In this document: positions 5,164-19,080 of the stretch, in pieces
Position numbering within the stretch: position 1 is the stretch's first letter
How the letters are laid out: each line of letters begins with the position of its first letter
Source: a virus
DNA: 19,196 nt
Virus genome (UHGV): UHGV-1692018
Direction: 5' to 3' (one strand)
Notes under the pieces: model-generated
The model's input: only the letters and a program-made list of their open reading frames with translations
Databases searched by the model: none
What the model was told of the DNA's origin: nothing
Program-made: the position numbers and the translations under genes

Positions 5164-5619
5164 CTATCTCCCGTGATTCAGGAAGTCGATTAGTTCTTCG
5201 CGTGTGGCGCTGTAAAACGTCACGTCATCCACGCCTTTGAAGTATTTCTTGATGGTTCCTACACGCTTAAGGCCAATCATTGCGCAGTACATCTGCCCGT
5301 GGCGGAATTTGCGTGCAGCGAACGATGTGACGCACTGAACGGTGGTGTTAGTCAGAATGTATCGCCAGAACGCCAGCCCGATTTCCTTGCTGAATCCGCG
5401 AACCTCTGGCAGGTACATGGCGTGGCAATCGAATGTAAGCGGCTGAATCTCCTGATAGTAAACAATGCCGCCGAACTGCCCGTGCACGTTCACCTCAAAG
5501 TAACGGCAATCATGTTTATAGTCGTATCCATCACCGTTGTTGCTTCCGGCAATAATGTCAGGGTGATTTCCGACAGCTTCTATCAGGTCGATGTTTCGCG
5601 TTGGTTTGAATGTAATCAT
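5164..5619 (-). CDS. P22 gp14-like virion assembly/ejection accessory protein
   Basis: 151 aa between the needle and gp7-like genes, the position of P22 gene 14; stop/start overlap with the needle gene. Confidence 0.65.
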   Translation of the reverse strand: MITFKPTRNIDLIEAVGNHPDIIAGSNNGDGYDYKHDCRYFEVNVHGQFGGIVYYQEIQPLTFDCHAMYLPEVRGFSKEIGLAFWRYILTNTTVQCVTSFAARKFRHGQMYCAMIGLKRVGTIKKYFKGVDDVTFYSATREELIDFLNHGR

Positions 5620-6320
5620 CAGTCAATCAACCCATGTAATCTAAGTGCTGTTTCAAGCGCCAGAATACGCTGCCGCGCCTGCTCCAAACCTGTAGCGATA
5701 GCTGCGACTTCGGATTGTGTGTACGTAGTGCCGACCGTGTATGACTGGTTAGCGTTGAATGAGCCAAGAAGAGGTGTACCTGTGGCTGCAGTCCATCCGG
5801 TATTTCTTGCTCCAACAACCTGAATTCCATCAACTGAATATGATGTTTTTACATCCAGCGGTGACGCAAGAGACTGCAATTTGGTTACGGTTTTCGATAC
5901 GTAATCACTCTTAATGTCAGATACATCGCTTTCTACGCCATCCAGTCTTTGGTCAACAGTGACCAGATGCGCCTGAATATCGATAACCTCATCCAGCAAG
6001 TAATCAACATCGCTACGCAGTACGACTATCTTCCCTTCGGCGGTTGTTAACCTGACCTCAAGGAGATTTATCGCTTTTGTGTTTGCGGTGATTCTTGCAT
6101 CGTGGTCAGCCAGTTCGACATCCTGTTCATCGTTTTTCACCTGAGCATCGTAAGCGCCCTGACCAGCCTGATTTGCCTTCCCGGCAATTGCGCCGACATC
6201 AGCCCCCTGATTAATGACATACAGCAGGTAAGACTGGCTGAATATATTGCGTGGAAGGATTGATGTATCGAGCCGCGTCGCCTGCACAATAACAGGGGTG
6301 TTGAGATTCGAATCAGCCAT
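5619..6320 (-). CDS. Tail needle protein, P22 gp26-like (trimeric coiled-coil needle)
   Basis: The listed ORF (5619..6422) starts at a GTG; the likely true start is the ATG at 6318-6320 ([25 protein letters not shown]...), giving 233 aa, the P22 gp26 size as I recall it. It overlaps the gp10-like stop in a TAATG arrangement. Sequence closely resembles P22 gp26 as I recall it, including the C-terminal ...[18 protein letters not shown]. Confidence 0.9.
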
Positions 6321-7738
6321 TACTCGATCCTTATCTGAGCGCCAGACAGAGTGACAGGTGACTTCGTGATAACGCGCAATTTGAAGCCGACATTTTTCCT
6401 GATGCGCCCTACTCGCTTCCACAAAACGCGTTTGTCGTAAACGAACGGTTCATTCTGCTCAATCATCTGCTCACGTCCGTAATTGATGCCGTCAGTGGTT
6501 GCAGAGAGGAACAGGCGGTCAGCGTACTGAGCGACACCAGTCGATGATTCAACTTCCAGATCAAAACATCTGGCGTTCTCAGCTTTGAAGATTGGTGTAA
6601 ACAACAGGTGTTCTTGCTGTAGCCCATACTGGCTGCTGATATCGAACTGCAATTTGCCGATAACCGATTCCAGCTTATCTCCGCACGTTATCTGATTGCC
6701 TTCGTAAATGAAGTCGATAGCGCGGTACACATCGTCATACAAGCCTGTTTTCAGCACACACCATTGCGGACCATTGGCGCTTGAAGATGCGTCGTACACG
6801 AGAACATGGCGCGGAAGGTGGATAATCAGCAACTCATGAGCATCAAAGCGCAGAGACTCCATCACGCCATCAGCCAGTTCATCAGCAGTGTAGGAGCGGA
6901 GGATTTTCTCAATGCTCGCGCTGGCGATTGGTGACACCTGACCGGAGCCGATGATGTACACAGACGGCGCACCTGTTGCCGGATTGCTGATGAACGCATA
7001 CGAATCAGCAAACGGCGTTTTGCAGTAGGTTCCGGCGATTCCTTTTTGCACCATCAGCGATGGCTGTGCGACATACAAAGCAGCACCAACTGTGGTTGCA
7101 CCAGTCAGGGAGAAATATTCAATCGTCGATGAGCCAAAGCAGACGATGAAGTCTCGCCATGTTCCGATGCCGATGATGCCGTCCGGCTGAGATTCTGCGC
7201 GATATTGTGCGCTGTAACGGTCAGGATGCGATTCGTCTTCAAGGTCAGTGATAAACCATGAATCAGTGCCGTCTTTTGACCACGCATAACGCCCACGCAA
7301 GCGCGTAATGTCGCGGACTGAGCCTAACTCATACTGCGTGAATCCGCTGTCTGTAGGCCAGTTTGAGACGGTTTTAACCGTGCCATCATAGCGGTATTCG
7401 ACCAGTTGACCATTAACGCCTACCGCCTGTGATGTTCGACCATGCGCCATTGATACGCGACCACTTCCGGCGACGTCACCTACTTCGCTTTCGCCTTTGT
7501 AGAGCTTGCCACCACACACGCGATAAACAGCATTCTGCGCCATGTTGTACTCGACGCCGCGAGATACACCGTTCACATCAGAGCGTTTGGCAATGCCAGG
7601 GAATGAGCGAAGATATCCGCTGCTGTTCAGGATTTCTTTGGGTGTAGCCAACATATTCATTGGCAGATAGTCGATATAGTCGGCGTTTCTAAAGTCTTTG
7701 CCGACACCTTTCATAAGCGGAAGTTGCTGAATCGGCAT
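6320..7738 (-). CDS. Tail hub / head-completion protein, P22 gp10-like
   Basis: 472 aa, the size I recall for P22 gp10; N-terminus [26 protein letters not shown] matches my recollection of P22 gp10 closely. Confidence 0.9.
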
Positions 7739-8209: not shown

Positions 8210-8378
8210 CTTCTTCCGCCTTAGCCACTTTTTGCTTCGTTGCGGTTTCTTCAGGAGTTTTTACCCAGCCTTTTTTCAGGTGAGATTTAACTTCTTCGTC
8301 ATCAACGATGATGTAATCCAGCGAGTGGGGGCCGCAGGTGATCATCGTTCCCGGCTTATAAAGCATGATTTGAGACAT
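8190..8378 (-). CDS. Small hypothetical protein (62 aa from the ATG at 8378)
   Basis: The listed ORF starts at a TTG at 8390 inside the terminator T-tract. GGAG followed 6 nt later by ATG at 8378 (MSQIMLYKPG...) is the more plausible start. Function unknown. Confidence 0.45.
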   Translation of the reverse strand: MSQIMLYKPGTMITCGPHSLDYIIVDDEEVKSHLKKGWVKTPEETATKQKVAKAEEDGENEG

Positions 8379-8388
8379 TTCGATCTCC

Positions 8389-8414
8389 AAAAAAAAGAGG
8401 GGCCGAAGCCCCTT
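8389..8414 (-). terminator. Intrinsic terminator / stabilising hairpin immediately after the coat gene
   Basis: Minus-strand RNA would read AGGGGC-UUCG-GCCCCU (6-bp GC stem, UUCG tetraloop) followed by eight U, starting just after the coat stop codon. Confidence 0.7.
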
Positions 8415-8417
8415 GGA

Positions 8418-10684: not shown

Positions 10685-12883
10685 TTACTGCTGTGATTGT
10701 TGCTGGGTTGATTTTTGCAGGATGCTGCTGATGTCCATTCGCTGCGCATGACCCTGTGCCTGACTTTTCAGGACAAGCTCTGCATCAGCACGGGCATTGT
10801 CTCCTTGCTGTTGCTGGAACTGTCCGAGCAGTTTCAGAGCCTCGCGGATATCAGATTTCTGCTGGCTATCGGCAGATGCGAGGATTTTCACAACGTTTGC
10901 CGCTGCAACCTGAGCATCAGTCTGTGCCTGGAATGCTTTAACCTGAATGGCTGCCTGTTCGTTCTGCGCTTTCTGCAATTCAGCCTGACCTGCAAGAAGC
11001 TGACCTTGCGCTGCAACCATAGCCGGATCTGGCTGACTGGCCTGTTGTTGTTTCGCCTGTTCAACCATCTGCTGTTCTTCAGGCGTTCTCGGCTTGATAA
11101 CGCCAGACAGAAGCAACTGATTGCGGTTGTATTCTTTAAGGTCGTCCATCCCTTCGCCGTCCATATTGTCGAGAATCATCGACGATACAAGGTCGTGCTT
11201 CTGCGTTCCTGGTGGGATAAGTGCCAGCATGGAAAGTAACGACTTAACCGTTGCATCACGGCGAGTAGCGAACGACTGACCGACATCGACAGTCACTTCA
11301 TAGTTGCCCTGCGAAAGGTCATTAAGCGCGATAACCTGCCCTGTCTGACGGTCAACCACTTCACCAGTCATCAGCGCCACGTCATCGCTGCCGTCCTCAT
11401 TAACGATACGCATCGGCGTATCACTGCCATAGACCTCACGCGCCATAGAAAGCCACACAACGCCAGCGCGACGCATGGATTTAGCCATGTTGTCCATGTA
11501 GATATAGGACTGCGTGTCCATCCGGTTAAAGATGCTATCAACGGTATCGGTGGCGACGTTGCTCGGCATGTTCTCAAGCTGCGACGCACCTGTAATTTGC
11601 TGAATAGCCGTTCCGGTGTACTGCAATAGCCCGGCAAGAGCAGGAGGCATTTGTGTCGGAGGTGTATAACTGCTGACCTGAGCCTGCGCAGTAATATCTC
11701 CGTTTTTGTTTTTCAGACTGACCATCGGCAGGAACGCCGGGCGCTTTTTGTTGCGCTCCGCCCAATGAGTGGCAAGAGGACCAGGAATCATGTCAACATC
11801 AACTACAGGAATGCCATCACCGCCAGCCTGAGTGGCGTTATCTGCAATCATGGAAACCATCAGGTTCTCAAGACGCTGTGCATCCATCGCTTTTGCTGCG
11901 TGGCCTTCGATTCGCTCCTGATTATCAACAAATGAACGACGCCCATATACCGGGATGAGAGGAATATGTTCGCCCGGAATACGCTTCGGTTCTTCCAGCC
12001 ATTCAGCGCCAGACAGAAGACCGCAATAAACTCGGCGTTTCTTCACCGTTCGCTCGCCAATCAGTTCGAATGCACCATCGGTCAGCTCGTCGACAATATC
12101 TTTGATTTGCTCTTCATCATAGATTGCCGTTTCTCCGCTGACAGGGTTACGCCATGCTGTGAGCTTCACCTTCTCTATGCGGACTTCGTAGTAGCGTCCA
12201 ACATAGATGGCGTCAGGCGTTGACCAGTCATACTGAGTACCAGTGTCATCACGAGAAAGGCTTGCCGCGATGGAATCAGGGTATTCAGCCTCGAACGCTT
12301 TAGGCGTCATGGAGAACATTTCCATAGCCCACATAGCATCAGAGCGGTCATATTGCTTGCTGTCCTGATCGAAGAAGACGCATGTCGCTGGGTCGTAAAC
12401 CGGGAGAAGGCTTATACGGCGTTGCTCGTTACTCGGATCCATTTCATCTTCGTAATCGGCACACATGCGGAAACAACCGAATCCGCCCGTTACAGCATCA
12501 TCAAATGCGTTATCACACGCTTCGCCACCGGATGTTTCCTGATAGTCAGCGCGGAATTTTCCGTTCATCTTTTCGGCTAACGCTTCCGATGCCTTATCGT
12601 CCTTCGGCCTGAATTTAACGCTGATGCGATTCTGTCGATACTCGCCAATGATGCGATCACATTCACGGGAAATCTTATTCAGTTCAAAGCGCGGGTAATG
12701 CTCAAACCTGCCTTCATCAAATGAGTAACCAGCGTTTGTGCTGCCTTCCCACTGTGCGCCGGATACCCGGACGAAACGTTGAGCCTCAATAATCTGCTCA
12801 CGCATATCCTGCGTTGCTGACCAGGCATTATCAAAGTTGCACAGCACCCTGCGATGCCAGTCAGTCATCTTTTTTTCAGCCAT
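10685..12883 (-). CDS. Portal protein, P22 gp1-like
   Basis: 732 aa following the large terminase; the Gln/Ala-rich C-terminal region (AQGQLLAGQAELQKAQNEQ...) resembles the C-terminal helical barrel of P22 portal as recalled. Confidence 0.85.
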   Translation of the reverse strand: MAEKKMTDWHRRVLCNFDNAWSATQDMREQIIEAQRFVRVSGAQWEGSTNAGYSFDEGRFEHYPRFELNKISRECDRIIGEYRQNRISVKFRPKDDKASEALAEKMNGKFRADYQETSGGEACDNAFDDAVTGGFGCFRMCADYEDEMDPSNEQRRISLLPVYDPATCVFFDQDSKQYDRSDAMWAMEMFSMTPKAFEAEYPDSIAASLSRDDTGTQYDWSTPDAIYVGRYYEVRIEKVKLTAWRNPVSGETAIYDEEQIKDIVDELTDGAFELIGERTVKKRRVYCGLLSGAEWLEEPKRIPGEHIPLIPVYGRRSFVDNQERIEGHAAKAMDAQRLENLMVSMIADNATQAGGDGIPVVDVDMIPGPLATHWAERNKKRPAFLPMVSLKNKNGDITAQAQVSSYTPPTQMPPALAGLLQYTGTAIQQITGASQLENMPSNVATDTVDSIFNRMDTQSYIYMDNMAKSMRRAGVVWLSMAREVYGSDTPMRIVNEDGSDDVALMTGEVVDRQTGQVIALNDLSQGNYEVTVDVGQSFATRRDATVKSLLSMLALIPPGTQKHDLVSSMILDNMDGEGMDDLKEYNRNQLLLSGVIKPRTPEEQQMVEQAKQQQASQPDPAMVAAQGQLLAGQAELQKAQNEQAAIQVKAFQAQTDAQVAAANVVKILASADSQQKSDIREALKLLGQFQQQQGDNARADAELVLKSQAQGHAQRMDISSILQKSTQQQSQQ

Positions 12884-12884
12884 A

Positions 12885-14300
12885 TCAACCTACACCACAA
12901 GGAATTGAGTAACTGGAATAGTCGGGTTGCGCAGCCGACTCCGGGCAATGCATACACATCATCAGCGCATCAGCCAGGTTAGGAGATGGAATACCGAGCT
13001 TCTGCTTCATTTCGACCTTAGTCATAAGCTCCAGCTTCCCGTTGTTATTGAATTTGCGCTGAATCTGCGTCAGTTCTGCAAATAGCTTCTCCAGCATCTT
13101 CTCGCCTATCGCTTCTTTGTCGAAACTCAGCATGTCGTCGGGGTCTGCATACTCACCGTGAACAACCGCCCGATATGTCAGATACAGCCTGTCAGCCAGC
13201 GCGTAATAGAATTGCGCTCGCTTATTGCGGAACACATCGCCAATAGTGCGAACGTTGTCACCCTGTACGACTTCATCAGCCCATGCTCCGGCTTGATACG
13301 GTGCATCTTCATCGAATGGCGATTCGCTGCCCTTGAACATCGTGGCGGTGATTTTCTTGCCGGAGAACGCTTCCGTTGTCTGTCTGCGTAGCCCGGCACC
13401 AACACCATCACCATCCCACAGGTAATGGTCAGCGCCGTCTTCAATCGCCAGCGAAGTAGCCCAGTCAGCACCTTCATTGATGTCCATCAGCAGACCTTCG
13501 GCAATGCGCTTAACTACCGAACCGTGGCGCGATGCATAACCTTTAGCATCCGGTCCTGTATCTGACGGGTCATGCGCAGAGACAACAGCGCCTTTCGCCT
13601 TCCATCCGAGTTTCTTGTGCGCATCGGTTGCGGCTTCAAGCCATTCACGTTTGATAATTGCCATATCACTTGCGCTCACTGGCTCACCAAGCCAGATGTG
13701 ACGATACAGTGTCGGATTTCTGCGTTTACACTCTTCCATCTCCAGACGGAGAACTTCAGGAAAGTGCGGGTTGTCGGTGTAGTTCACCGTCAGCAGGCAA
13801 ATATCATCGGGAGGATTTACAACGAATCGCTGATAGGTATCGTCGAGGATGTTCTTAGGGTTGAAACTCACCCATATTTCGGAAAACGGCTTGCGGATGG
13901 TTGGTATCAGGATATCCCATGATTCCTTCGTTACCGCTTCCGCTTCTTCCACCCAGCAGATATCAATGCCTTCGAGCGATTTAATCTTCGTCGGGTTGTT
14001 TTTGATGCCGTAGAACATGAACTCAGCATTCGTTCCGAGATGACGAATCATGGAACGCTGAATTTCAAACTCAGCCGAATATCCTTCACGCTCGATGGTG
14101 TCTTCAAGCAGCCGGATTACCGAATCGCTGATACTGTTTTGCAGTTCACGAGCGCAGAGAATACGCACTGGCTGACGACGCGCCGCTTCAACAAGCAGCC
14201 TCGCAATTGCCCATGATTTACCGCTACCTCGACCGCCTTTGGCGACTTTGTAGCGATGCGCCTCAATGAACGGTTCAAAGATAGGATTAATCGAGGTCAT
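12885..14300 (-). CDS. Terminase large subunit
   Basis: 471 aa; Walker A P-loop at the N-terminus (VAKGGRGSGKSWAIARLL); 4-nt overlap with the small-subunit gene upstream, portal gene immediately downstream. Confidence 0.9.
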   Translation of the reverse strand: MTSINPIFEPFIEAHRYKVAKGGRGSGKSWAIARLLVEAARRQPVRILCARELQNSISDSVIRLLEDTIEREGYSAEFEIQRSMIRHLGTNAEFMFYGIKNNPTKIKSLEGIDICWVEEAEAVTKESWDILIPTIRKPFSEIWVSFNPKNILDDTYQRFVVNPPDDICLLTVNYTDNPHFPEVLRLEMEECKRRNPTLYRHIWLGEPVSASDMAIIKREWLEAATDAHKKLGWKAKGAVVSAHDPSDTGPDAKGYASRHGSVVKRIAEGLLMDINEGADWATSLAIEDGADHYLWDGDGVGAGLRRQTTEAFSGKKITATMFKGSESPFDEDAPYQAGAWADEVVQGDNVRTIGDVFRNKRAQFYYALADRLYLTYRAVVHGEYADPDDMLSFDKEAIGEKMLEKLFAELTQIQRKFNNNGKLELMTKVEMKQKLGIPSPNLADALMMCMHCPESAAQPDYSSYSIPCGVG

Positions 14301-14737
14301 TTTCCGAACAGAGTGCTCATCGGTGATGTTTCAATCTGGATTGCGCCGCCGTCTTTGCCTGTTAGCTCGTGATCAACCTTGTCGCGCCATTTATCCTTCT
14401 GTCGGTTCTTAAGCCAGAAGATGGCAGCTGTTGTATCAGGCGGGTAATACTTCTCAAGAGGAGTTTCGACAATTCTGTTTTCAATAACACGAATATCGAT
14501 GTCTGGAGCCACGAAGCCCATAGCGCGTTGATAAAGACGATCACTAACTTCTGCATCAGCGACTGCCTTACCCTTTTTTATGGACTCTAAAAACTCCGGA
14601 TATTCCAATTTCCAATTGTTGATTGTTGCCTCGCTAACTTCAAAGAAGTCCGCGAGTTCGGCGTCTGTACAGCCCAGCAAGCACAGTTTGCGTGCCTGTT
14701 CGGCATACGCCTCTTGATACTTTGTTGGGCGCGCCAT
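14297..14737 (-). CDS. Terminase small subunit
   Basis: 146 aa immediately upstream of and overlapping the large terminase; N-terminal HTH-like region (ELADFFEVSEATINNWKLEYPEF) typical of small terminases. Confidence 0.75.
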   Translation of the reverse strand: MARPTKYQEAYAEQARKLCLLGCTDAELADFFEVSEATINNWKLEYPEFLESIKKGKAVADAEVSDRLYQRAMGFVAPDIDIRVIENRIVETPLEKYYPPDTTAAIFWLKNRQKDKWRDKVDHELTGKDGGAIQIETSPMSTLFGK

Positions 14738-14739
14738 GT

Positions 14740-14982
14740 TTATGCTCCGGTAGTGAACAGGTCTAACGCTTCCTTCGATTTACGCACCGCTTCGATAGTG
14801 CGGGTCGTGATATCTGAATTAGCGCCGCCTGACTGGAAGTGAATTTTGAATAGCTCAAGCTTCAGCTCGTCAGTGCCAATGAACTGAAATGCTTCCTCTG
14901 CGGCTGCGTTCTGGTTCATGACCAGCTTGTAAATCTCTAACTGGAATTTCTGTTCTTCAGTCATGGGAATAATCTCTGCCAT
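14740..14982 (-). CDS. Hypothetical 80-aa protein translationally coupled to the terminase genes (P22 orf80-like position)
   Basis: GGAG 6 nt upstream of the ATG at 14982; stop abuts the small terminase start; no recognisable motifs. Confidence 0.55.
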   Translation of the reverse strand: MAEIIPMTEEQKFQLEIYKLVMNQNAAAEEAFQFIGTDELKLELFKIHFQSGGANSDITTRTIEAVRKSKEALDLFTTGA

Positions 14983-15003
14983 TGTTGGCTCCGTTTATCC
15001 GTT

Positions 15004-15029
15004 AAAAGGGATATCAGTTAAGTTATCCC
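15004..15029 (-). terminator. Weak terminator-like hairpin upstream of the 80-aa ORF
   Basis: Minus-strand GGGAUA, 10-nt loop, UAUCCC, followed by UUUU; short AU-containing stem, so weak. Confidence 0.3.
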
Positions 15030-15334
15030 GTGTAGGGTATAAGCCATTGTCGAGACCACTCATTGAATGGTCTCTGCAATAACCGATGTCTTTCCATCAG
15101 TCCGCCACCACAAAGAATCTTTTTTGCCATAAGGCAGGAGGTTCATCTTTCAGTGGCTGCCAGTGTTATTTCCCCACTTACTGGCTTGGGTTGCTTCGTG
15201 GTACTGCCGCAACTGGTGGTGCACAGATTTAGTTAAATCTGTTCTCGCCTGAACTATCTTTTACATACCCGGATTGTGGGGATGTAAATCACGGTTTCAT
15301 TATCAAGCCCACCCGTAGATAGGCTTTGTAATGG

Positions 15335-15592
15335 CTACTTCGCTTTTGCTTCCGCTCGCTTACGCCGGCGCTCTTCTTTCCTCTCGGCTTTTGCCATGTC
15401 CATGAATGCCTGCATGATCGAGTTCCGCATCATGTAGCTAACAAAGTGATGATTGACACAGCCGTTGAGGCGCAGCTGCTCGCCAAACTCATCCACCGAG
15501 GCCAATGCTTCCATCATGCCCTTCTCGCCTTTCATGAACTCTGAGAAGTCGCGCCCCGCTCTGGAGGCGCATTCAATAACACGATCACTCAT
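15335..15592 (-). CDS. Hypothetical 85-aa protein with basic C-terminal tail, coupled to the KilA-N/Bro-N gene
   Basis: ATGA start/stop overlap with the upstream gene; C-terminus ERKEERRRKRAEAKAK is highly basic; no recognisable domain. Confidence 0.5.
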   Translation of the reverse strand: MSDRVIECASRAGRDFSEFMKGEKGMMEALASVDEFGEQLRLNGCVNHHFVSYMMRNSIMQAFMDMAKAERKEERRRKRAEAKAK

Positions 15593-16086
15593 CCCGGAAG
15601 CCCGGGGATCGTAATCTGCAGCTGGTTAGCCAGGGAGTTAATCTCAGCGACCAACACTGGCTTCGTATAGCGCCATGCTGCCAGCCCTTGTCCGCAGAAG
15701 CTCGCCATGTCTTTCTTCTGGTCAAACTCATGACATTTCATGTTGAGCTGCGCACTTAAGCTGTTGCGATGCTGAAGTTCTCCGGTGAAGTAGTCATCCA
15801 GGACTTTATAGGCTGCATATTTAAATCCGGGGTTTAGCCATGCTGCATAATCATAAGCAACAAACTTCCCGCCATATGTTCCACCGTGTACACCGCGCTC
15901 AGTAAAAACCACAGATTCGTGGTTTTTCTCCAGCTCGGCTAAGAACTCTTTGGTCTGCTTGTTTCGCAGGTAGTGGTACGGAGATTCAGATTCACTTTTA
16001 CCACTGGCTTTCCACATATCAGTGAGGCAGATCATTCCTGATTCATCAACACGGATCGGTGTATTAAAAAGCGTGATTGCTTTCAT
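15589..16086 (-). CDS. KilA-N/Bro-N-type (antirepressor-like) DNA-binding domain protein; moron-like insertion between lysis and terminase genes
   Basis: The listed 222-aa ORF starts at 16257 inside an upstream terminator; the likely start is the ATG at 16086 (MKAITLFNTPIRVDESGMICLTDMWKASG...), about 165 aa. The N-terminal pattern F..iR....G.....tD..ka.G fits the KilA-N/Bro-N consensus as recalled. Confidence 0.6.
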   Translation of the reverse strand: MKAITLFNTPIRVDESGMICLTDMWKASGKSESESPYHYLRNKQTKEFLAELEKNHESVVFTERGVHGGTYGGKFVAYDYAAWLNPGFKYAAYKVLDDYFTGELQHRNSLSAQLNMKCHEFDQKKDMASFCGQGLAAWRYTKPVLVAEINSLANQLQITIPGLPG

Positions 16087-16230
16087 AGCGTCTTTACCTT
16101 TTAGAAAGTGAGCCTGTCTCACAGAAAAGCCGCCCGAGAGAGGTCGCCACCTATAACGGCATTTCTCAGGCTCGCTTACTGAAAGGCTCTCGTTAATATG
16201 CGCGTGAGATGCGCTGTGAAATTCAGATAT

Positions 16231-16253
16231 AAAAAAGCCCCGCATCGCGAGGC
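16231..16253 (-). terminator. Intrinsic terminator downstream of Rz
   Basis: Minus-strand GCCUCGC-GAU-GCGGGGC (7-bp stem with one G.U pair) followed by UUUUUU, about 30 nt after the Rz stop. Confidence 0.6.
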
Positions 16254-16285
16254 TCATTAAATGGACTTTGTGATTTGCAAAAAAA

Positions 16286-16723
16286 TTATTTCAGGCATTG
16301 CGTCCTGATGTATTCCTGCAGGTAGTTAACCTGCGCGGTTATCTTGTCGATTCCACTTCGGAGACGGTAATAATTGAGTTCAGCATCTGCTGTAAGTCCT
16401 GGGCTTTCTCCATCGCCCATGCCGCTGGCTCCGGTCGTTGACTTTGCACAGGTGGCGGCGACTTGCAGGCGCTTACGCCCAGCAGAAACATCAGCACGGA
16501 GACTTTCGATAGTCGCGTTAGCATCAGCAAGCTCCTTTGTGTATCTGGCGTCGAGTTCTGCTACATCACGTTGACGCTTCTGCATATCAGCGATGATGGA
16601 TGTGGCTTTATCGCGCTGCTCTTTGTAGGTCATGGCGTTATCACGGTAATGATTAACAGCCCATGACAGGCAGACGATGATGCAGATAACCAGAGCGGAG
16701 ATAATCGCGGTTACCCTGCTCAT
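16286..16723 (-). CDS. Rz: Rz-type i-spanin (inner-membrane spanin)
   Basis: The ATG at 16723 overlaps the endolysin stop (ATGA). N-terminal transmembrane segment ([18 protein letters not shown]) followed by a charged, probably coiled-coil periplasmic region. An Rz1-like ORF is embedded in the +1 frame. Confidence 0.8.
16339..16530 (-). CDS. Rz1: Rz1-type o-spanin (outer-membrane lipoprotein) embedded within Rz
   Basis: Lies wholly inside Rz in another frame. Signal peptide with lipobox VSAC (FLLGVSAC) followed by a Pro-rich mature region ([16 protein letters not shown]), the classic Rz1 signature. Confidence 0.8.
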
Positions 16724-17223
16724 TGCTGCCCCCACAAACAGACTTCACGCTCAATATCACGACGGGTCATCAGTCCTTTCCATTGCTTACCGCCAGCGTA
16801 TGTCCAGCGACGTAGTTGATCACATGCACCTTTGATATCGCCCTGGTTGATTTTGCGAAGAAGCGTCGATGTTCTGAAATTGCCAGCGCCCACGTTGTAA
16901 ACGAACGAGTAAAGAGCGCCGCGCGTTGTTTCCGGTATATCGACTTTGATGTACGGGTTAATTTGTCTGGCGACCGTGGCAAGGTCTTTATTCAGGAGGG
17001 CTTTGCATTCTGCTTCGGTATACGTTTTACCGAGCATGATGTCTTTTCCTGTATGCCCGTAACATACAGTCCATACACCAACAATATCTTTGTATGGTAT
17101 GTAGCTGACACCTTCCAGGCCATCGTTACCACTTGGTCCAGTGATTAACACAGATGCTATAGCAATAGCCCCGCCACTTATCGCCGCTATTACGCTATTT
17201 CGTAGTGCCGGTGACATTGCCAT
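16720..17223 (-). CDS. SAR endolysin (signal-anchor-release lysozyme, T4-lysozyme/GH24-like)
   Basis: N-terminal Gly/Ala-rich weakly hydrophobic segment ([20 protein letters not shown]) followed by a catalytic region with the E-8 residues-D-5 residues-T pattern ([17 protein letters not shown]), as in P1 Lyz and phage 21 R. Confidence 0.85.
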
Positions 17224-17398
17224 TCAATCTGTCCTCGCGCTCTTTGCGCTTGTAGTACCAGTTGATGCCAAATGTGCCGACAGTACAAAGAATACCAATG
17301 ATGACAGCCCAGTCATTCAGGGAGAGAATGCCACCCATCGCAGTCAGTCCTCCGAAGCTGTAACTGAACCATTCTCTGATTTTGTCCATACGGTACAT
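17195..17398 (-). CDS. Pinholin-type (class II, S21-like) holin with dual-start motif
   Basis: 67 aa; starts MYRMDKI, compared with phage 21 S MKSMDKI as recalled. Gly-rich first hydrophobic segment ([13 protein letters not shown]), second transmembrane segment ([18 protein letters not shown]), basic C-terminus. Paired with a SAR endolysin. Confidence 0.7.
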
Positions 17399-17555: not shown

Positions 17556-17804
17556 ACCCGCTTTCACGAAGGTCATGTGTAGAAGGCCGCAGCGTAACTA
17601 TCACTGATGAATTCAGGATAGCCAGTGGCTACGGCTCAGTTTGGGTTGTGCTGTTGCTGGGCGGCGATGACGCCTGTACGCATTTGGTGATCCGGTTCTG
17701 CTTCCGGTATTCGCTTAATTCAGCACAACGGAAAGAGCACTGGCTAACCAGGCGCGCCGACTCTTCACGATTATCGACTCAATGCTCTTACCTGTTGTGC
17801 AAAT

Positions 17805-17847
17805 AAAAAAAGCCACCGTTGCAACTTAAGAGTCACTAACGGCAGCT
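17805..17847 (-). terminator. Terminator-like hairpin plus U7 tract just downstream of the HNH endonuclease gene
   Basis: Minus-strand AGCUGCCGUU ... AACGGUGGCU (about 10 bp with two G.U pairs, large loop) followed by UUUUUUU; starts about 10 nt after the HNH stop. Confidence 0.45.
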
Positions 17848-17854
17848 TACATCT

Positions 17855-18367
17855 TTAAACGGTATGATATTTCATTCTGGCTGCCTCAAAAGCCGCAGCG
17901 GCAAGTTCGGCAGTGTCATGGTATCCAAGGTTAATACACTTTCCAGACGCATTAATTCTTGCTCTCCATTTCCCGTACTTAGCATCCCAAGACACGCCAC
18001 GGTATCCAGATTTATTATTCTTCTGAATTTTCCTGTTTTGCATATTTTCGGAATGAGTGACAAGACGAAGATTTGATATCCGGTTATCTGTTCTTACCCT
18101 GTTGATGTGATCAATAAAACCATCGGGCATGGTGCCATAAACAATCAACCATGCCAGTCTGTGAGCAGGGCATGCTTTACCATTAATCATAATCATTAAA
18201 TACCCATCAGAATTTATTGATGAGCATTTCTTGAAAGCAAAACGAGAGTTCCATGTCAAAGTGGTCCTCTCTCTCCCCTGCCTCCATCTCCAGTGAAAGT
18301 CGCCTGATGATGGATTGTAATCAACAACAGAAAGCACCATTTCTGGCGTTAATTTTATTTCTTTCAT
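17855..18367 (-). CDS. Free-standing HNH homing endonuclease with C-terminal AP2-type DNA-binding domain
   Basis: 170 aa. HNH motif region AHRLAWLIVYGTMPDGFIDHINRVRTDNRISNLRLVTHSEN; C-terminal AP2-like region GYRGVSWDAKYGKWRARI...GYHDTAELAAAAFEAARMKY. Confidence 0.85.
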   Translation of the reverse strand: MKEIKLTPEMVLSVVDYNPSSGDFHWRWRQGRERTTLTWNSRFAFKKCSSINSDGYLMIMINGKACPAHRLAWLIVYGTMPDGFIDHINRVRTDNRISNLRLVTHSENMQNRKIQKNNKSGYRGVSWDAKYGKWRARINASGKCINLGYHDTAELAAAAFEAARMKYHTV

Positions 18368-18554: not shown

Positions 18555-18584
18555 ATTATGGCTAAATGGCTAATTGCATGTCAA
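18555..18584 (-). promoter_or_regulatory. Candidate late promoter (pR'-like) overlapping the 3' end of the Q-like gene
   Basis: Minus strand has TTGACA (18579-18584), an 18-nt spacer containing the Q stop codon, then CATAAT (18555-18560). Predicted start is about 18548, giving a roughly 55-nt RNA ending at the 18490-18512 terminator. A -10-like element (TATGCT) lies in the initial transcribed region. Confidence 0.45.
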
Positions 18585-19080
18585 GACTTTTAACAGCAAC
18601 ATGCTTAACTTTCTCAACACGTTTACGCATTTTGAAAGCATTTTGCATTGGTTGGTACAAAACAAATAACGACGCTTTCAGGATGTCGTCAATTTCGTTT
18701 CTACAGGTTGCCATTGAAGGTTTTCTCCATCCCTCGCCACCACGTCCACACATCTTGCGTGGCTTTGCAGTCGCGTGATAGTAGGATGCAATTGCTCGCT
18801 TAGATGAACCATGAGCGTAGTAGCTGAGGAGGATGCCAAAGGCTTTTTTGTCAATGTACATGACGGAATCGACGACCTGAGAAATCAACATTCCATCATC
18901 ATCATTGCACATTGGCCTTGTCATAACTCTTCCCGGCTCTACGCTCTCCATGAACTTCGCTATTACGCTGCTCATGCGCTTTTCCAGACGACCTGAATAA
19001 ACCCATGCGCCCCACAGTTCAAGCCAGCCATTCAGCCACTCATGCTGTTCTTTGGTGAGGTTTAGTTCTCTTATGCCCAC
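18562..19080 (-). CDS. Q-like late-gene antitermination protein (QuuD/phage-82-type family, tentative)
   Basis: 172 aa, GTG start with GGAG upstream. Motifs WLELWGAW and RPMCNDDDGMLI resemble E. coli prophage Q-type antiterminators (QuuD: ERWGAW ... RPQICDDDAMII, recalled from memory). Located immediately upstream of the late promoter/terminator and the lysis cassette. Confidence 0.6.
   Translation of the reverse strand: MGIRELNLTKEQHEWLNGWLELWGAWVYSGRLEKRMSSVIAKFMESVEPGRVMTRPMCNDDDGMLISQVVDSVMYIDKKAFGILLSYYAHGSSKRAIASYYHATAKPRKMCGRGGEGWRKPSMATCRNEIDDILKASLFVLYQPMQNAFKMRKRVEKVKHVAVKSLDMQLAI

Follow-up and report, generated by a model that had tools for sequence, protein, structure and literature searches.

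A conserved non-coding element at the lysis–packaging junction of a lambdoid phage and its probable homology to the Proteo-phage-1 RNA motif

The phage genome UHGV-1692018, of which the whole stretch of 19,196 nt is called the window here, contains the late region of a P22/HK620/Sf6-like phage, and at the junction of its lysis and packaging genes 352 nt (positions 14983–15334, referred to as the gap) separate an open reading frame (ORF) of 85 amino acids from a DUF2560 ORF of 80 amino acids. Is this gap a terminator, the remnant of a gene, or an RNA with a role of its own? All late genes of this phage lie on the minus strand, so that the sense RNA of the gap is that of the minus strand. The gap was found to hold a pseudoknotted core RNA of about 130 nt, flanked by hairpins, and the element is very probably a conserved, RNA-level homolog of the Proteo-phage-1 motif.

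An initial annotation of the letters had described the gap as an unusually long and structured one in a tightly packed operon, and both descriptions hold. The coordinates and the content were correct: no ORF of 60 amino acids or more is present, the longest ORF touching the gap being one of 57 amino acids with a TTG start on the plus strand, and no gap in the window is longer. The statement that genes elsewhere lie less than 30 bp apart applies to the immediate neighbours only, other gaps of about 250 nt (17605–17854), 208 nt (8210–8417) and 90 nt being present in the window. The minus-strand RNA of the gap folded with −118.8 kcal/mol (z = −7.85), a value equalled by none of 100 shuffled sequences, and the plus-strand RNA gave a z of −3.92. 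Of the four inverted repeats that had been listed, three are real, namely GGGATA/TATCCC (15008–15029), GAGACCA/TGGTCTC (inside the arms 15046–15062/15064–15080) and TTTACAT.../...ATGTAAA (15260–15288), whereas the fourth (about 15151–15165) is a direct CAGTG repeat around GGC-T-GCC, which forms part of the pseudoknot tail and the closing helix of the core. Hairpins at 15298–15333, 15223–15242 and 15083–15100 had not been listed. Read 5' to 3' on the minus strand, the order is H1, H2, H3, the core, H8 and H9, followed by the GGAG and the ATG of the DUF2560 ORF.

A core RNA related to Proteo-phage-1

Proteo-phage-1 is an orphan RNA motif (Weinberg et al. 2017, PMC5737381; Rfam RF03044), and a search for papers naming it in searchable text found none. 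When the window was scanned with Rfam at the gathering threshold, no match was obtained; in a permissive scan, RF03044 was the sole suggestive match (15155–15219, minus strand, 19.1 bits, E = 0.99). The enteric loci L136 and L142 (retrieved loci are numbered with L) likewise fell below the RF03044 threshold. A pattern consisting of the conserved loop and tail was used on viral and genome collections to retrieve further loci, and it returned enteric copies together with high-GC copies, the latter mostly from Pseudomonas/Stutzerimonas prophages. The high-GC Pseudomonas loci that were sampled are bona fide Proteo-phage-1 RNAs, with scores of 45–81 bits.

The likeness between these RNAs runs past the 82-nt Rfam model, which stops at GGCAGCC. 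On the 3' side of GGCAGCC, a GCC/GGC closing helix and a P3 hairpin (in Pseudomonas also a P4) are followed by GGC[GC]GAC, by a terminal hairpin with the loop GAAAGA (CGAAA or CGUAA in two other lineages) and by a UAUU-rich stretch; the stem of the terminal hairpin varies by lineage while its loop is kept. The family is extended by about 130 nt at its 3' end compared with the Rfam model and is roughly double the length of that model. In the core of the window, the long hairpin P3/H6 is the counterpart of the closing helix and P3 of the Pseudomonas RNAs, and their P4 domain is missing. The terminal motif would be expected 7e-5 times by chance in the window and was matched in none of 2000 shuffles; it is present in 152 of the 203 distinct elements, where one loop is carried by at least eight different stems.

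A covariance model with the 3' extension, designated R1, was built from 22 non-redundant Pseudomonas sequences only (210 positions, 46 pairs). When the window was searched with R1 with the filters off, using E-values from a rough calibration, the best match was found on the minus strand at 15070–15221 (25.6 bits, E = 1.4e-8, model positions 1–210), and it was the only significant one, the second-best match having an E-value of 0.16. The training loci of R1 had been fetched with a pattern that fixes the loop and the tail, of which the 3' half of the model is independent. The link between the core and the Pseudomonas tails emerged only with a structure-aware model and the right hairpin spacing.

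The pairing statistics were computed on 99 matches (78 distinct rows). Standard pairs filled 96.7% of the pair cells, compared with 28–44% when the partner was slid by one to three columns, and changes on both sides were seen in 32 of the 46 pairs; none of 500 shuffles reached any of the observed measures. The nested model cannot hold P2 together with the pseudoknot, and P2 is supported separately by helix variants, its loop being closed by at least nine different helices across the family. The pseudoknot is formed by ACUGGC (15159–15164) of the tail with GCCAGU (15180–15185) of the P2 loop. It occurs as GCCAG/CUGGC in 121 distinct elements and as GCCGG/CCGGC in 72, with A·C mismatch intermediates in 10; at the model pair 75/120, GC is found in 57 rows and AU in 18.

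As in Proteo-phage-1, a stem closes the loop AAGCCNGNNAGUG in the core, and the tail AACACNGGCAGCC can pair with this loop; in terms of the family definition, a P2 stem surrounds (AU)AAGCCGGnnAGUG, and the 3' tail AACACCGGCAGCC pairs with the P2 loop, loop and tail changing together. Both RNAs are found in prophages of Proteobacteria, and a model made from bona fide members detects the core. They differ in that the P2 of the core is a stem of just 3 bp directly next to the loop, P1 is kept only poorly, an A-U pair stands in the pseudoknot where Pseudomonas has G-C, and the core lies at the lysis–packaging junction rather than between a Q-position gene and a holin gene. The enteric form of the core is a compact variant with a 3-bp P2, no P4 and a P1 that is mostly not maintained. 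By Rfam's own criterion the core is not a member of the family; it is a relative by its architecture and by the independent model. The small structured RNA that the initial annotation had listed among its readings is what the covariance-model scan supports, weakly with RF03044 and significantly with R1: the core is a divergent member of an RNA family with covariation support, and substitutions in the flanking hairpins keep the pairing only as sense-strand RNA.

The invariant nucleotides lie in the loops and junctions of a pseudoknotted multi-helix fold, which suggests an RNA that binds a protein or ligand, or works through its tertiary structure, rather than a simple antisense small RNA (sRNA). 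Other identities were tried and rejected. A nut-like boxA/boxB was not supported, the YCUUUGG sequence lying in the junction between helix arms of the consensus structure and no match to boxA being found; for a mimic of a CRISPR repeat (type I-F), the shared sequence amounts to only 8 nt. No tRNA or tmRNA was found in the window with ARAGORN and the Rfam tRNA model.

Within the family, a Pseudomonas prophage (L129) carries two Proteo-phage-1 copies 1.2 kb apart (5994–6131 and 7246–7460), in the first of which the pseudoknot is a variant (GUCGG/CUGGC) containing two G-U pairs.

Flanking hairpins and modular composition of the gap

H1 and H8 belong to one hairpin family (AUURCA-stem-GAYAAU), in which a lower stem AUUR/YAAU and a 2×2 CA/GA internal loop are constant and the upper stem and loop vary. 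Two copies are present in the window, compared with 0.24 expected by chance; a third version follows gene 66 of Sf6, and a fourth occurs elsewhere. Among 12 variants of H1, 155 of 156 pair cells were kept on the minus strand and 139 on the plus strand; for H8, likewise with 12 variants, the values were 166 of 168 and 141. This strand difference arises because the variation runs through G-U pairs and one compensatory double change, A-U to G-C, in the H8 copy of P22. The variation thus points to a sense-strand RNA, not a DNA cruciform, as judged from sequence comparison.

At least eight different upstream sequences have an H1-type hairpin 2–14 nt past their stop codons (2 nt past the TAG of the 85-amino-acid ORF in the window), and H1 alone also occurs in other lambdoid phages and in several siphoviruses. 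In their anatomy, H1 and H8 resemble the RNase III sites of T7 and the REP elements of E. coli: they are repeated hairpins with a conserved base and internal loop and a variable, covarying upper stem, located right after stop codons inside a polycistronic message. The likeness is one of anatomy; the stems have only 13–14 bp, and no sequence similarity to REP or to the T7 sites exists.

A nucleotide search (blastn) confirmed that the gap is conserved, with matches in 207 phage records at 80–99% identity, mostly above 90%. In HK620, JEP4, HK106, HK022 and HK97, no annotation lies beneath the match. Of 5426 complete E. coli genomes, 1120 (about a fifth) carry the central part of about 130 nt, and it is annotated in none of them. 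The parts of the module vary independently among these phages. P22 and epsilon34 carry the core and H8 without H1; phage L carries H1, the core and H8 but neither H2/H3 nor H9; HK022 and HK97 lack H2/H3; and the Stx phages carry the outer hairpins only. The block of H2 and H3 (15243–15297, about 58 nt) is present in HK620, Sf6 and Louie and missing from HK022, HK97, L and P22. As a separate observation, this block is a clean presence/absence polymorphism between otherwise identical modules when the window is compared with L003 and L005. The core block, from about ACGGCAG to GACAUC, is invariant among the enteric phages and is the only block that is never interrupted.

Whole genes can be placed between these parts. 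In Sf6, gene 66 is inserted immediately after ...GGAAAGACAUC, and in P22 an opposite-strand ORF with its own terminator is inserted after H8. The P22 insert (L006, AF217253, about 860–1500), which lies between H8 and ORF80, has its own ribosome-binding site and a bidirectional terminator and is unannotated in the record. The initial annotation had considered a decayed gene remnant and had proposed that related genomes be aligned for an intact ORF at the site; no ordinary gene was found there, and because the relatives share the same non-coding DNA, with the genes at the site being insertions between intact parts, the gap is not a dead gene.

A decayed or unrecognised protein gene is extremely unlikely, even though a coding sequence (CDS) is annotated in some records. 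The candidates are, on the minus strand, the 35-codon ORF and the orf118 N-terminus and, on the plus strand, the ORFs of 48 and 57 codons. The 35-codon ORF is annotated as a CDS in phage Louie (CDS0065, hypothetical protein) and forms the N-terminus of orf118 of ST64T/L, and an epsilon34 note likewise places a CDS in this stretch. The 35-codon ORF has no Shine-Dalgarno sequence, starts inside H6 and is frameshifted by length variants of A-runs in five distinct sequences; orf118 is the same ORF fused in frame to the DUF2560 gene through the deletion of H9, and its DUF2560 part retains its own ribosome-binding site and ATG. Indels of one and two bases (in a G-run and in A-runs) interrupt every candidate small ORF of the gap, and substitutions in H8 alter the putative amino acids yet keep the RNA pairs. 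Comparison of the sequences suggests that the 35-codon ORF is probably not a gene and that its annotations are artefacts.

A functionless relic, that is, a hitch-hiking spacer at a recombination hotspot that was conserved by recent spread and whose hairpins are leftovers of old terminators, was judged very unlikely. The near identity of the enteric copies, the use of the site for insertions and alternative junctions, and the dispensability of H1, H2/H3 and H9 in some phages would fit such a relic. Across Pseudomonas, Stutzerimonas and Acidithiobacillus, however, and in two metagenome bins tentatively labelled Crocinitomicaceae and Alphaproteobacteria, the same architecture recurs at about 50% sequence identity, most helices showing compensatory changes, and the core block alone is free of interruptions. 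A pac or cos site, or another DNA site, was rejected because the element is present both in headful (P22-like) and in cos (HK97/HK022) phages and because its variation keeps G-U pairs on one strand only; in HK022 and HK97 it lies about 0.8–1.1 kb from the right genome end (the cos end).

Enteric-form contigs were also retrieved from bins named Cellvibrionaceae, Nanosynbacter, Bacillota and Collinsella (L136, L139, L140, L147, L149 and L151); they are probably mis-binned contigs of enterobacterial phages.

The late region around the gap

The features of the gap and of the surrounding late region are listed in Table 1. No sigma-70-like promoter or terminator-like site was found by scanning the minus strand of the gap, and the nearest terminator-like site is the one between Rz and the KilA-N/Rha-like ORF. 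A terminator for the moron, as the initial annotation had proposed, is not what the gap provides in this window: the minus strand of 14983–15334 contains no G+C-rich hairpin with a U run, and none of its hairpins precedes a T run, the homologous terminal hairpin being a terminator in the chromosomal copies of Pseudomonas. Of the other readings of the initial annotation, a processing region and a protein-binding site are possible roles of the gap. The terminal hairpin of the window has 6 bp, including G-U and A-U, with three G-C pairs and four U in the next 8 nt. Searches of PDB sequences with both small proteins flanking the gap gave nothing informative.

Several side observations concern the neighbours. 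The HNH ORF resembles a homing-endonuclease insertion within the late-leader region, and it is followed by a second non-coding stretch, the gap of about 250 nt mentioned above. The hairpin at 16235–16255 has 9 bp, is rich in G+C and is followed by TTTTAT, as in an intrinsic terminator within the late operon; there the KilA-N and 85-amino-acid moron begins, and Q-modified polymerase would need to pass through the hairpin.

Table 1. Positions of the features of the gap and of the neighbouring late genes in the window
Feature	Position	Strand	Details
Q-like antiterminator	18562–19080	minus	
HNH endonuclease	17855–18367	minus	between Q-like antiterminator and holin
Holin	17195–17398	minus	
Endolysin	16720–17223	minus	
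Rz	16286–16735	minus	
Terminator-like hairpin with T run	16255–16235	minus	between Rz and KilA-N/Rha-like ORF
KilA-N/Rha-like ORF	15589–16257	minus	
85-amino-acid ORF	15335–15592	minus	upstream neighbour of the gap; TAG stop 15335–15337
Gap	14983–15334		352 nt, between the 85-amino-acid ORF and the DUF2560 ORF
H1	15298–15333	minus	CAUUA-CA-AAGCCUAUC-UACG-GGUGGGCUU-GA-UAAUG
H2	15260–15288	minus	hairpin UUUACAUCCC...GGGUAUGUAAA
H3	15223–15242	minus	perfect 9-bp hairpin ACAGAUUUA-AC-UAAAUCUGU; same optional block as H2
Core RNA	15083–15213	minus	131 nt, pseudoknotted; compact relative of Proteo-phage-1
P1-like hairpin	15190–15213	minus	GUUGC...GCAAC; can pair in this window
P2	15172–15190	minus	CCC/GGG stem (3 bp) closing the conserved loop AAGCCAGUAAGUG
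Conserved tail	15155–15167	minus	AACACUGGCAGCC; pseudoknot strand
P3/H6	15104–15157	minus	long hairpin, closed by GCCAC/GUGGC
Terminal hairpin motif	15083–15106	minus	GGCGGAC-CUGAUG-GAAAGA-CAUCGG, then UUAUUGCAG
35-codon ORF	15023–15130	minus	MAKKILCGGG...; L004 319–426; L005 801–1157; probably not a gene
H8	15046–15080	minus	AUUG-CA-GAGACCAUUC-AAU-GAGUGGUCUC-GA-CAAU; H1 family
H9	15008–15029	minus	GGGAUA-ACUUAACUGA-UAUCCC; deleted in phage L/ST64T
DUF2560 start signals	14980–14992	minus	GGAG Shine-Dalgarno 14989–14992; ATG 14980–14982
80-amino-acid DUF2560 ORF	14740–14982	minus	downstream neighbour of the gap
Small terminase	14297–14737	minus	label by ORF size and order and by the annotated HK620 locus
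Large terminase	12885–14300	minus	label by ORF size and order and by the annotated HK620 locus
Portal	10685–12883	minus	label by ORF size and order and by the annotated HK620 locus

Genomic contexts and candidate roles of the element

The RNA was found in several genomic contexts, and in all of them it is co-oriented with its neighbours. At the enteric loci, the upstream gene varies (an hkbL-like gene is present in only 16 of 107), and a DUF2560 gene lies 139–832 nt downstream of the core in 74 of 98. In Pseudomonas prophages, the order is NinG, the Q-position gene, the RNA, sometimes tRNAs, and the holin gene, the Q-position gene being phrog_3412 or phrog_3373, the latter weakly similar to Q-like proteins. 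A promoter-like site overlaps the end of the Q-position gene in L019, and a GC hairpin with a T run lies between this gene and the RNA in L019, L026 and L038. In phages of the Stutzerimonas type, a copy is located among early genes. In chromosomes of the P. brassicacearum group (L131 3779–3979, L150 4130–4330 and similar loci), the RNA directly follows an 82-amino-acid Cys-rich gene at a non-phage, stress-type locus, and its own terminal hairpin forms an intrinsic terminator at its end (the one in L131 qualifies as such). The Acidithiobacillus copy follows a relaxase-like gene and precedes a hydrophobic ORF of 31 amino acids. This ORF (MNSEKGLTKLEWVLIIALVVVLVAVALPQIH; L152, Acidithiobacillus ferrianus, 5573–5668) begins 20 nt past the terminal hairpin and resembles an Flp-type prepilin or a small membrane toxin.

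The most economical reading is that the Q-dependent late transcript includes the RNA. The Pseudomonas arrangement, with the RNA after a Q-position gene, before a holin gene and behind a promoter-like site and a T-run hairpin, resembles the pR' leader of lambda (6S RNA, qut, tR'), and as in that leader the RNA would be made only within the late transcript. The core has no similarity to the 6S RNA of lambda in sequence or structure, however, and the Q/pR' region of the window lies about 3 kb upstream (18562–19080), the element being inside the operon and not at its start.

On balance, we favour the view of the gap as a mobile non-coding module working as RNA, on the sense strand of the Q-dependent late transcript, a view that is likely though by no means assured. 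A mechanism of segmentation and factor binding can be proposed for it, which as worded here is tentative and somewhat doubtful. The RNA would be produced only while late antitermination is on, and the core would fold as an autonomous domain whose invariant loops bind a factor (a protein, possibly a small ligand) rather than engaging in long antisense pairing. H1 would protect the 3' end of the upstream lysis and moron message, H8 and H9 would protect the 5' end of the packaging message, and host RNases would cut between them at AU-rich linkers, AAUUUAUUCU in the short form and, past the terminal hairpin, GGUUAUUG. In this way the lysis and packaging segments might be uncoupled in their fate, and the core released or exposed. 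Three features of the anatomy suggest the segmentation: the upstream stop codon is directly followed by a hairpin, the core has a single-stranded, AU-rich linker on either side, and the ribosome-binding site of the DUF2560 ORF is preceded by two hairpins.

Several observations weigh against this view and against the homology on which it builds. The core, at 19.1 bits, does not reach the RF03044 gathering score of 42 bits, and the window was missed by an nhmmer profile that modelled mixed 3' tails from Pseudomonas by sequence only. The 131-nt core folded alone gave a z of −2.0, only marginally above shuffled sequences, so that the folding excess of the gap comes mostly from the five flanking hairpins. 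In most enteric variants P1 has 3 bp or none, and the sequence upstream is replaced at several junction types. Since the enteric copies are 90–99% identical, their conservation may partly reflect recent horizontal spread rather than selection. The stems of H1 and H8 fall short of the length of classical RNase III substrates, and bracketing by hairpins is not obligatory, given that H1 is missing at left junctions of the P22 type and at some others. In the transcriptome of BTP1, none of the sRNAs with retrieved coordinates has a start site of its own in the equivalent gap, which fits an operon-embedded RNA but gives no positive support for one, and the segmentation mechanism was derived from anatomy.

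Alternatively, the core could be a stand-alone, trans-acting RNA, cut from the late transcript or made with its own ends as in the Pseudomonas chromosomes, whose position in the operon is incidental and which might sequester a host protein or pair with host or phage mRNAs. This is possible but unlikely. Its boundaries are sharp and independent of context, and it occurs in at least four unrelated contexts (a late leader, the lysis–packaging junction, the 3' end of a chromosomal Cys-rich gene, with its own terminator, and a locus resembling a conjugative element); the insertion of whole genes between the core and the downstream DUF2560 gene and the classification of the family as sRNA in Rfam are also in keeping with it. 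On the other hand, base-pairing sRNAs do not usually combine a pseudoknot with a multi-helix junction, and the core has no promoter-like site in front of it in the window and is always co-oriented with the flanking genes. None of the six BTP1 lysogen sRNAs for which coordinates were retrieved (eight are reported) maps to the equivalent gap between lysis and terminase genes. The prophage sRNAs of E. coli and Salmonella (AsxR/AgvB, PasA–D and the STnc6000 series) are likewise non-coding RNAs in lambdoid late regions. AsxR and AgvB were rejected as identities of the core, RF02702 and RF02703 giving no match even at E-values up to 10 and the position being different, as these anti-sRNAs have been published to lie 3' of pR' (the moron site). 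The probe sequences of PasA–D are absent from the window; PasB is found in a similar number of genomes and has been described as 'embedded in structural operons', but neither the probe nor the coordinates published for it agree with the window.

Control of transcription in cis was also considered, in the form of a conditional terminator or of a put-like antitermination element that gates the polymerase on its way from the lysis genes to the packaging and head genes; in the conditional-terminator version, the pseudoknot domain would be the sensor, and the terminal hairpin with its U-rich tail the output. This explanation appears improbable. It would account for the terminal hairpin being a true intrinsic terminator in the P. 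brassicacearum-group copies, for the UAUU-rich sequence after this hairpin in the enteric and Pseudomonas-phage copies, for the late-leader position right after the Q-position gene in Pseudomonas phages and for a ribosome-binding site and gene within 20–35 nt in three other lineages, and an effect on elongation would tolerate the gene insertions of Sf6 and P22. The hairpin of the window is weak, however, with the few U residues noted above, and is not flagged by the terminator scan, the U-rich tail is replaced in Sf6-type variants, and riboswitch expression platforms do not typically conserve the loop and the 5' flank of the terminator. Moreover, terminators are already ignored by Q-modified polymerase, and no conserved alternative (anti-terminator) pairing was identified.

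The put RNAs of HK022 and other RNAs of processive antitermination that act in cis are compact, structured, cis-encoded RNAs of lambdoid phages and mobile elements that serve long operons independently of the distance to the downstream genes, and put sites are located just after early promoters. The gap element resembles them as a compact, structured RNA of lambdoid phages in a long operon; it differs in that HK022 itself carries the gap element, in its late region. An antitermination activity of the gap element is pure conjecture, drawn from this analogy. The broader proposal, in which the core gates late expression as a sensor or recruitment RNA (a riboswitch-like conditional terminator or a put-like polymerase-modifying element), is regarded as unlikely.

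Although P22, Sf6, HK620, HK97 and HK022 rank among the best-studied phages, their annotations leave this stretch empty, as do those of more than 1100 complete E. coli genomes. With the module favoured here, the lysis–packaging junction, usually taken as a simple site of moron insertion, would have an organisation at the RNA level, with bracketing hairpins and a folded domain. The orphan motif gains a genetically tractable home, one that offers the genetics of P22 and HK97 along with a late promoter and a Q protein that are already known, and the extended model is a better tool for annotating the motif in enteric prophages. If the gating proposal were true, an RNA common to enteric and pseudomonad lambdoid phages would set the transcription, or the mRNA segment, that passes from the lysis genes to the packaging and head genes, and it would give a widespread orphan RNA motif its first function, in the model phages P22, HK97, HK022 and Sf6. 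Control of late transcription or of mRNA fate by the RNA would, if real, put an extra layer on the textbook picture of Q antitermination.

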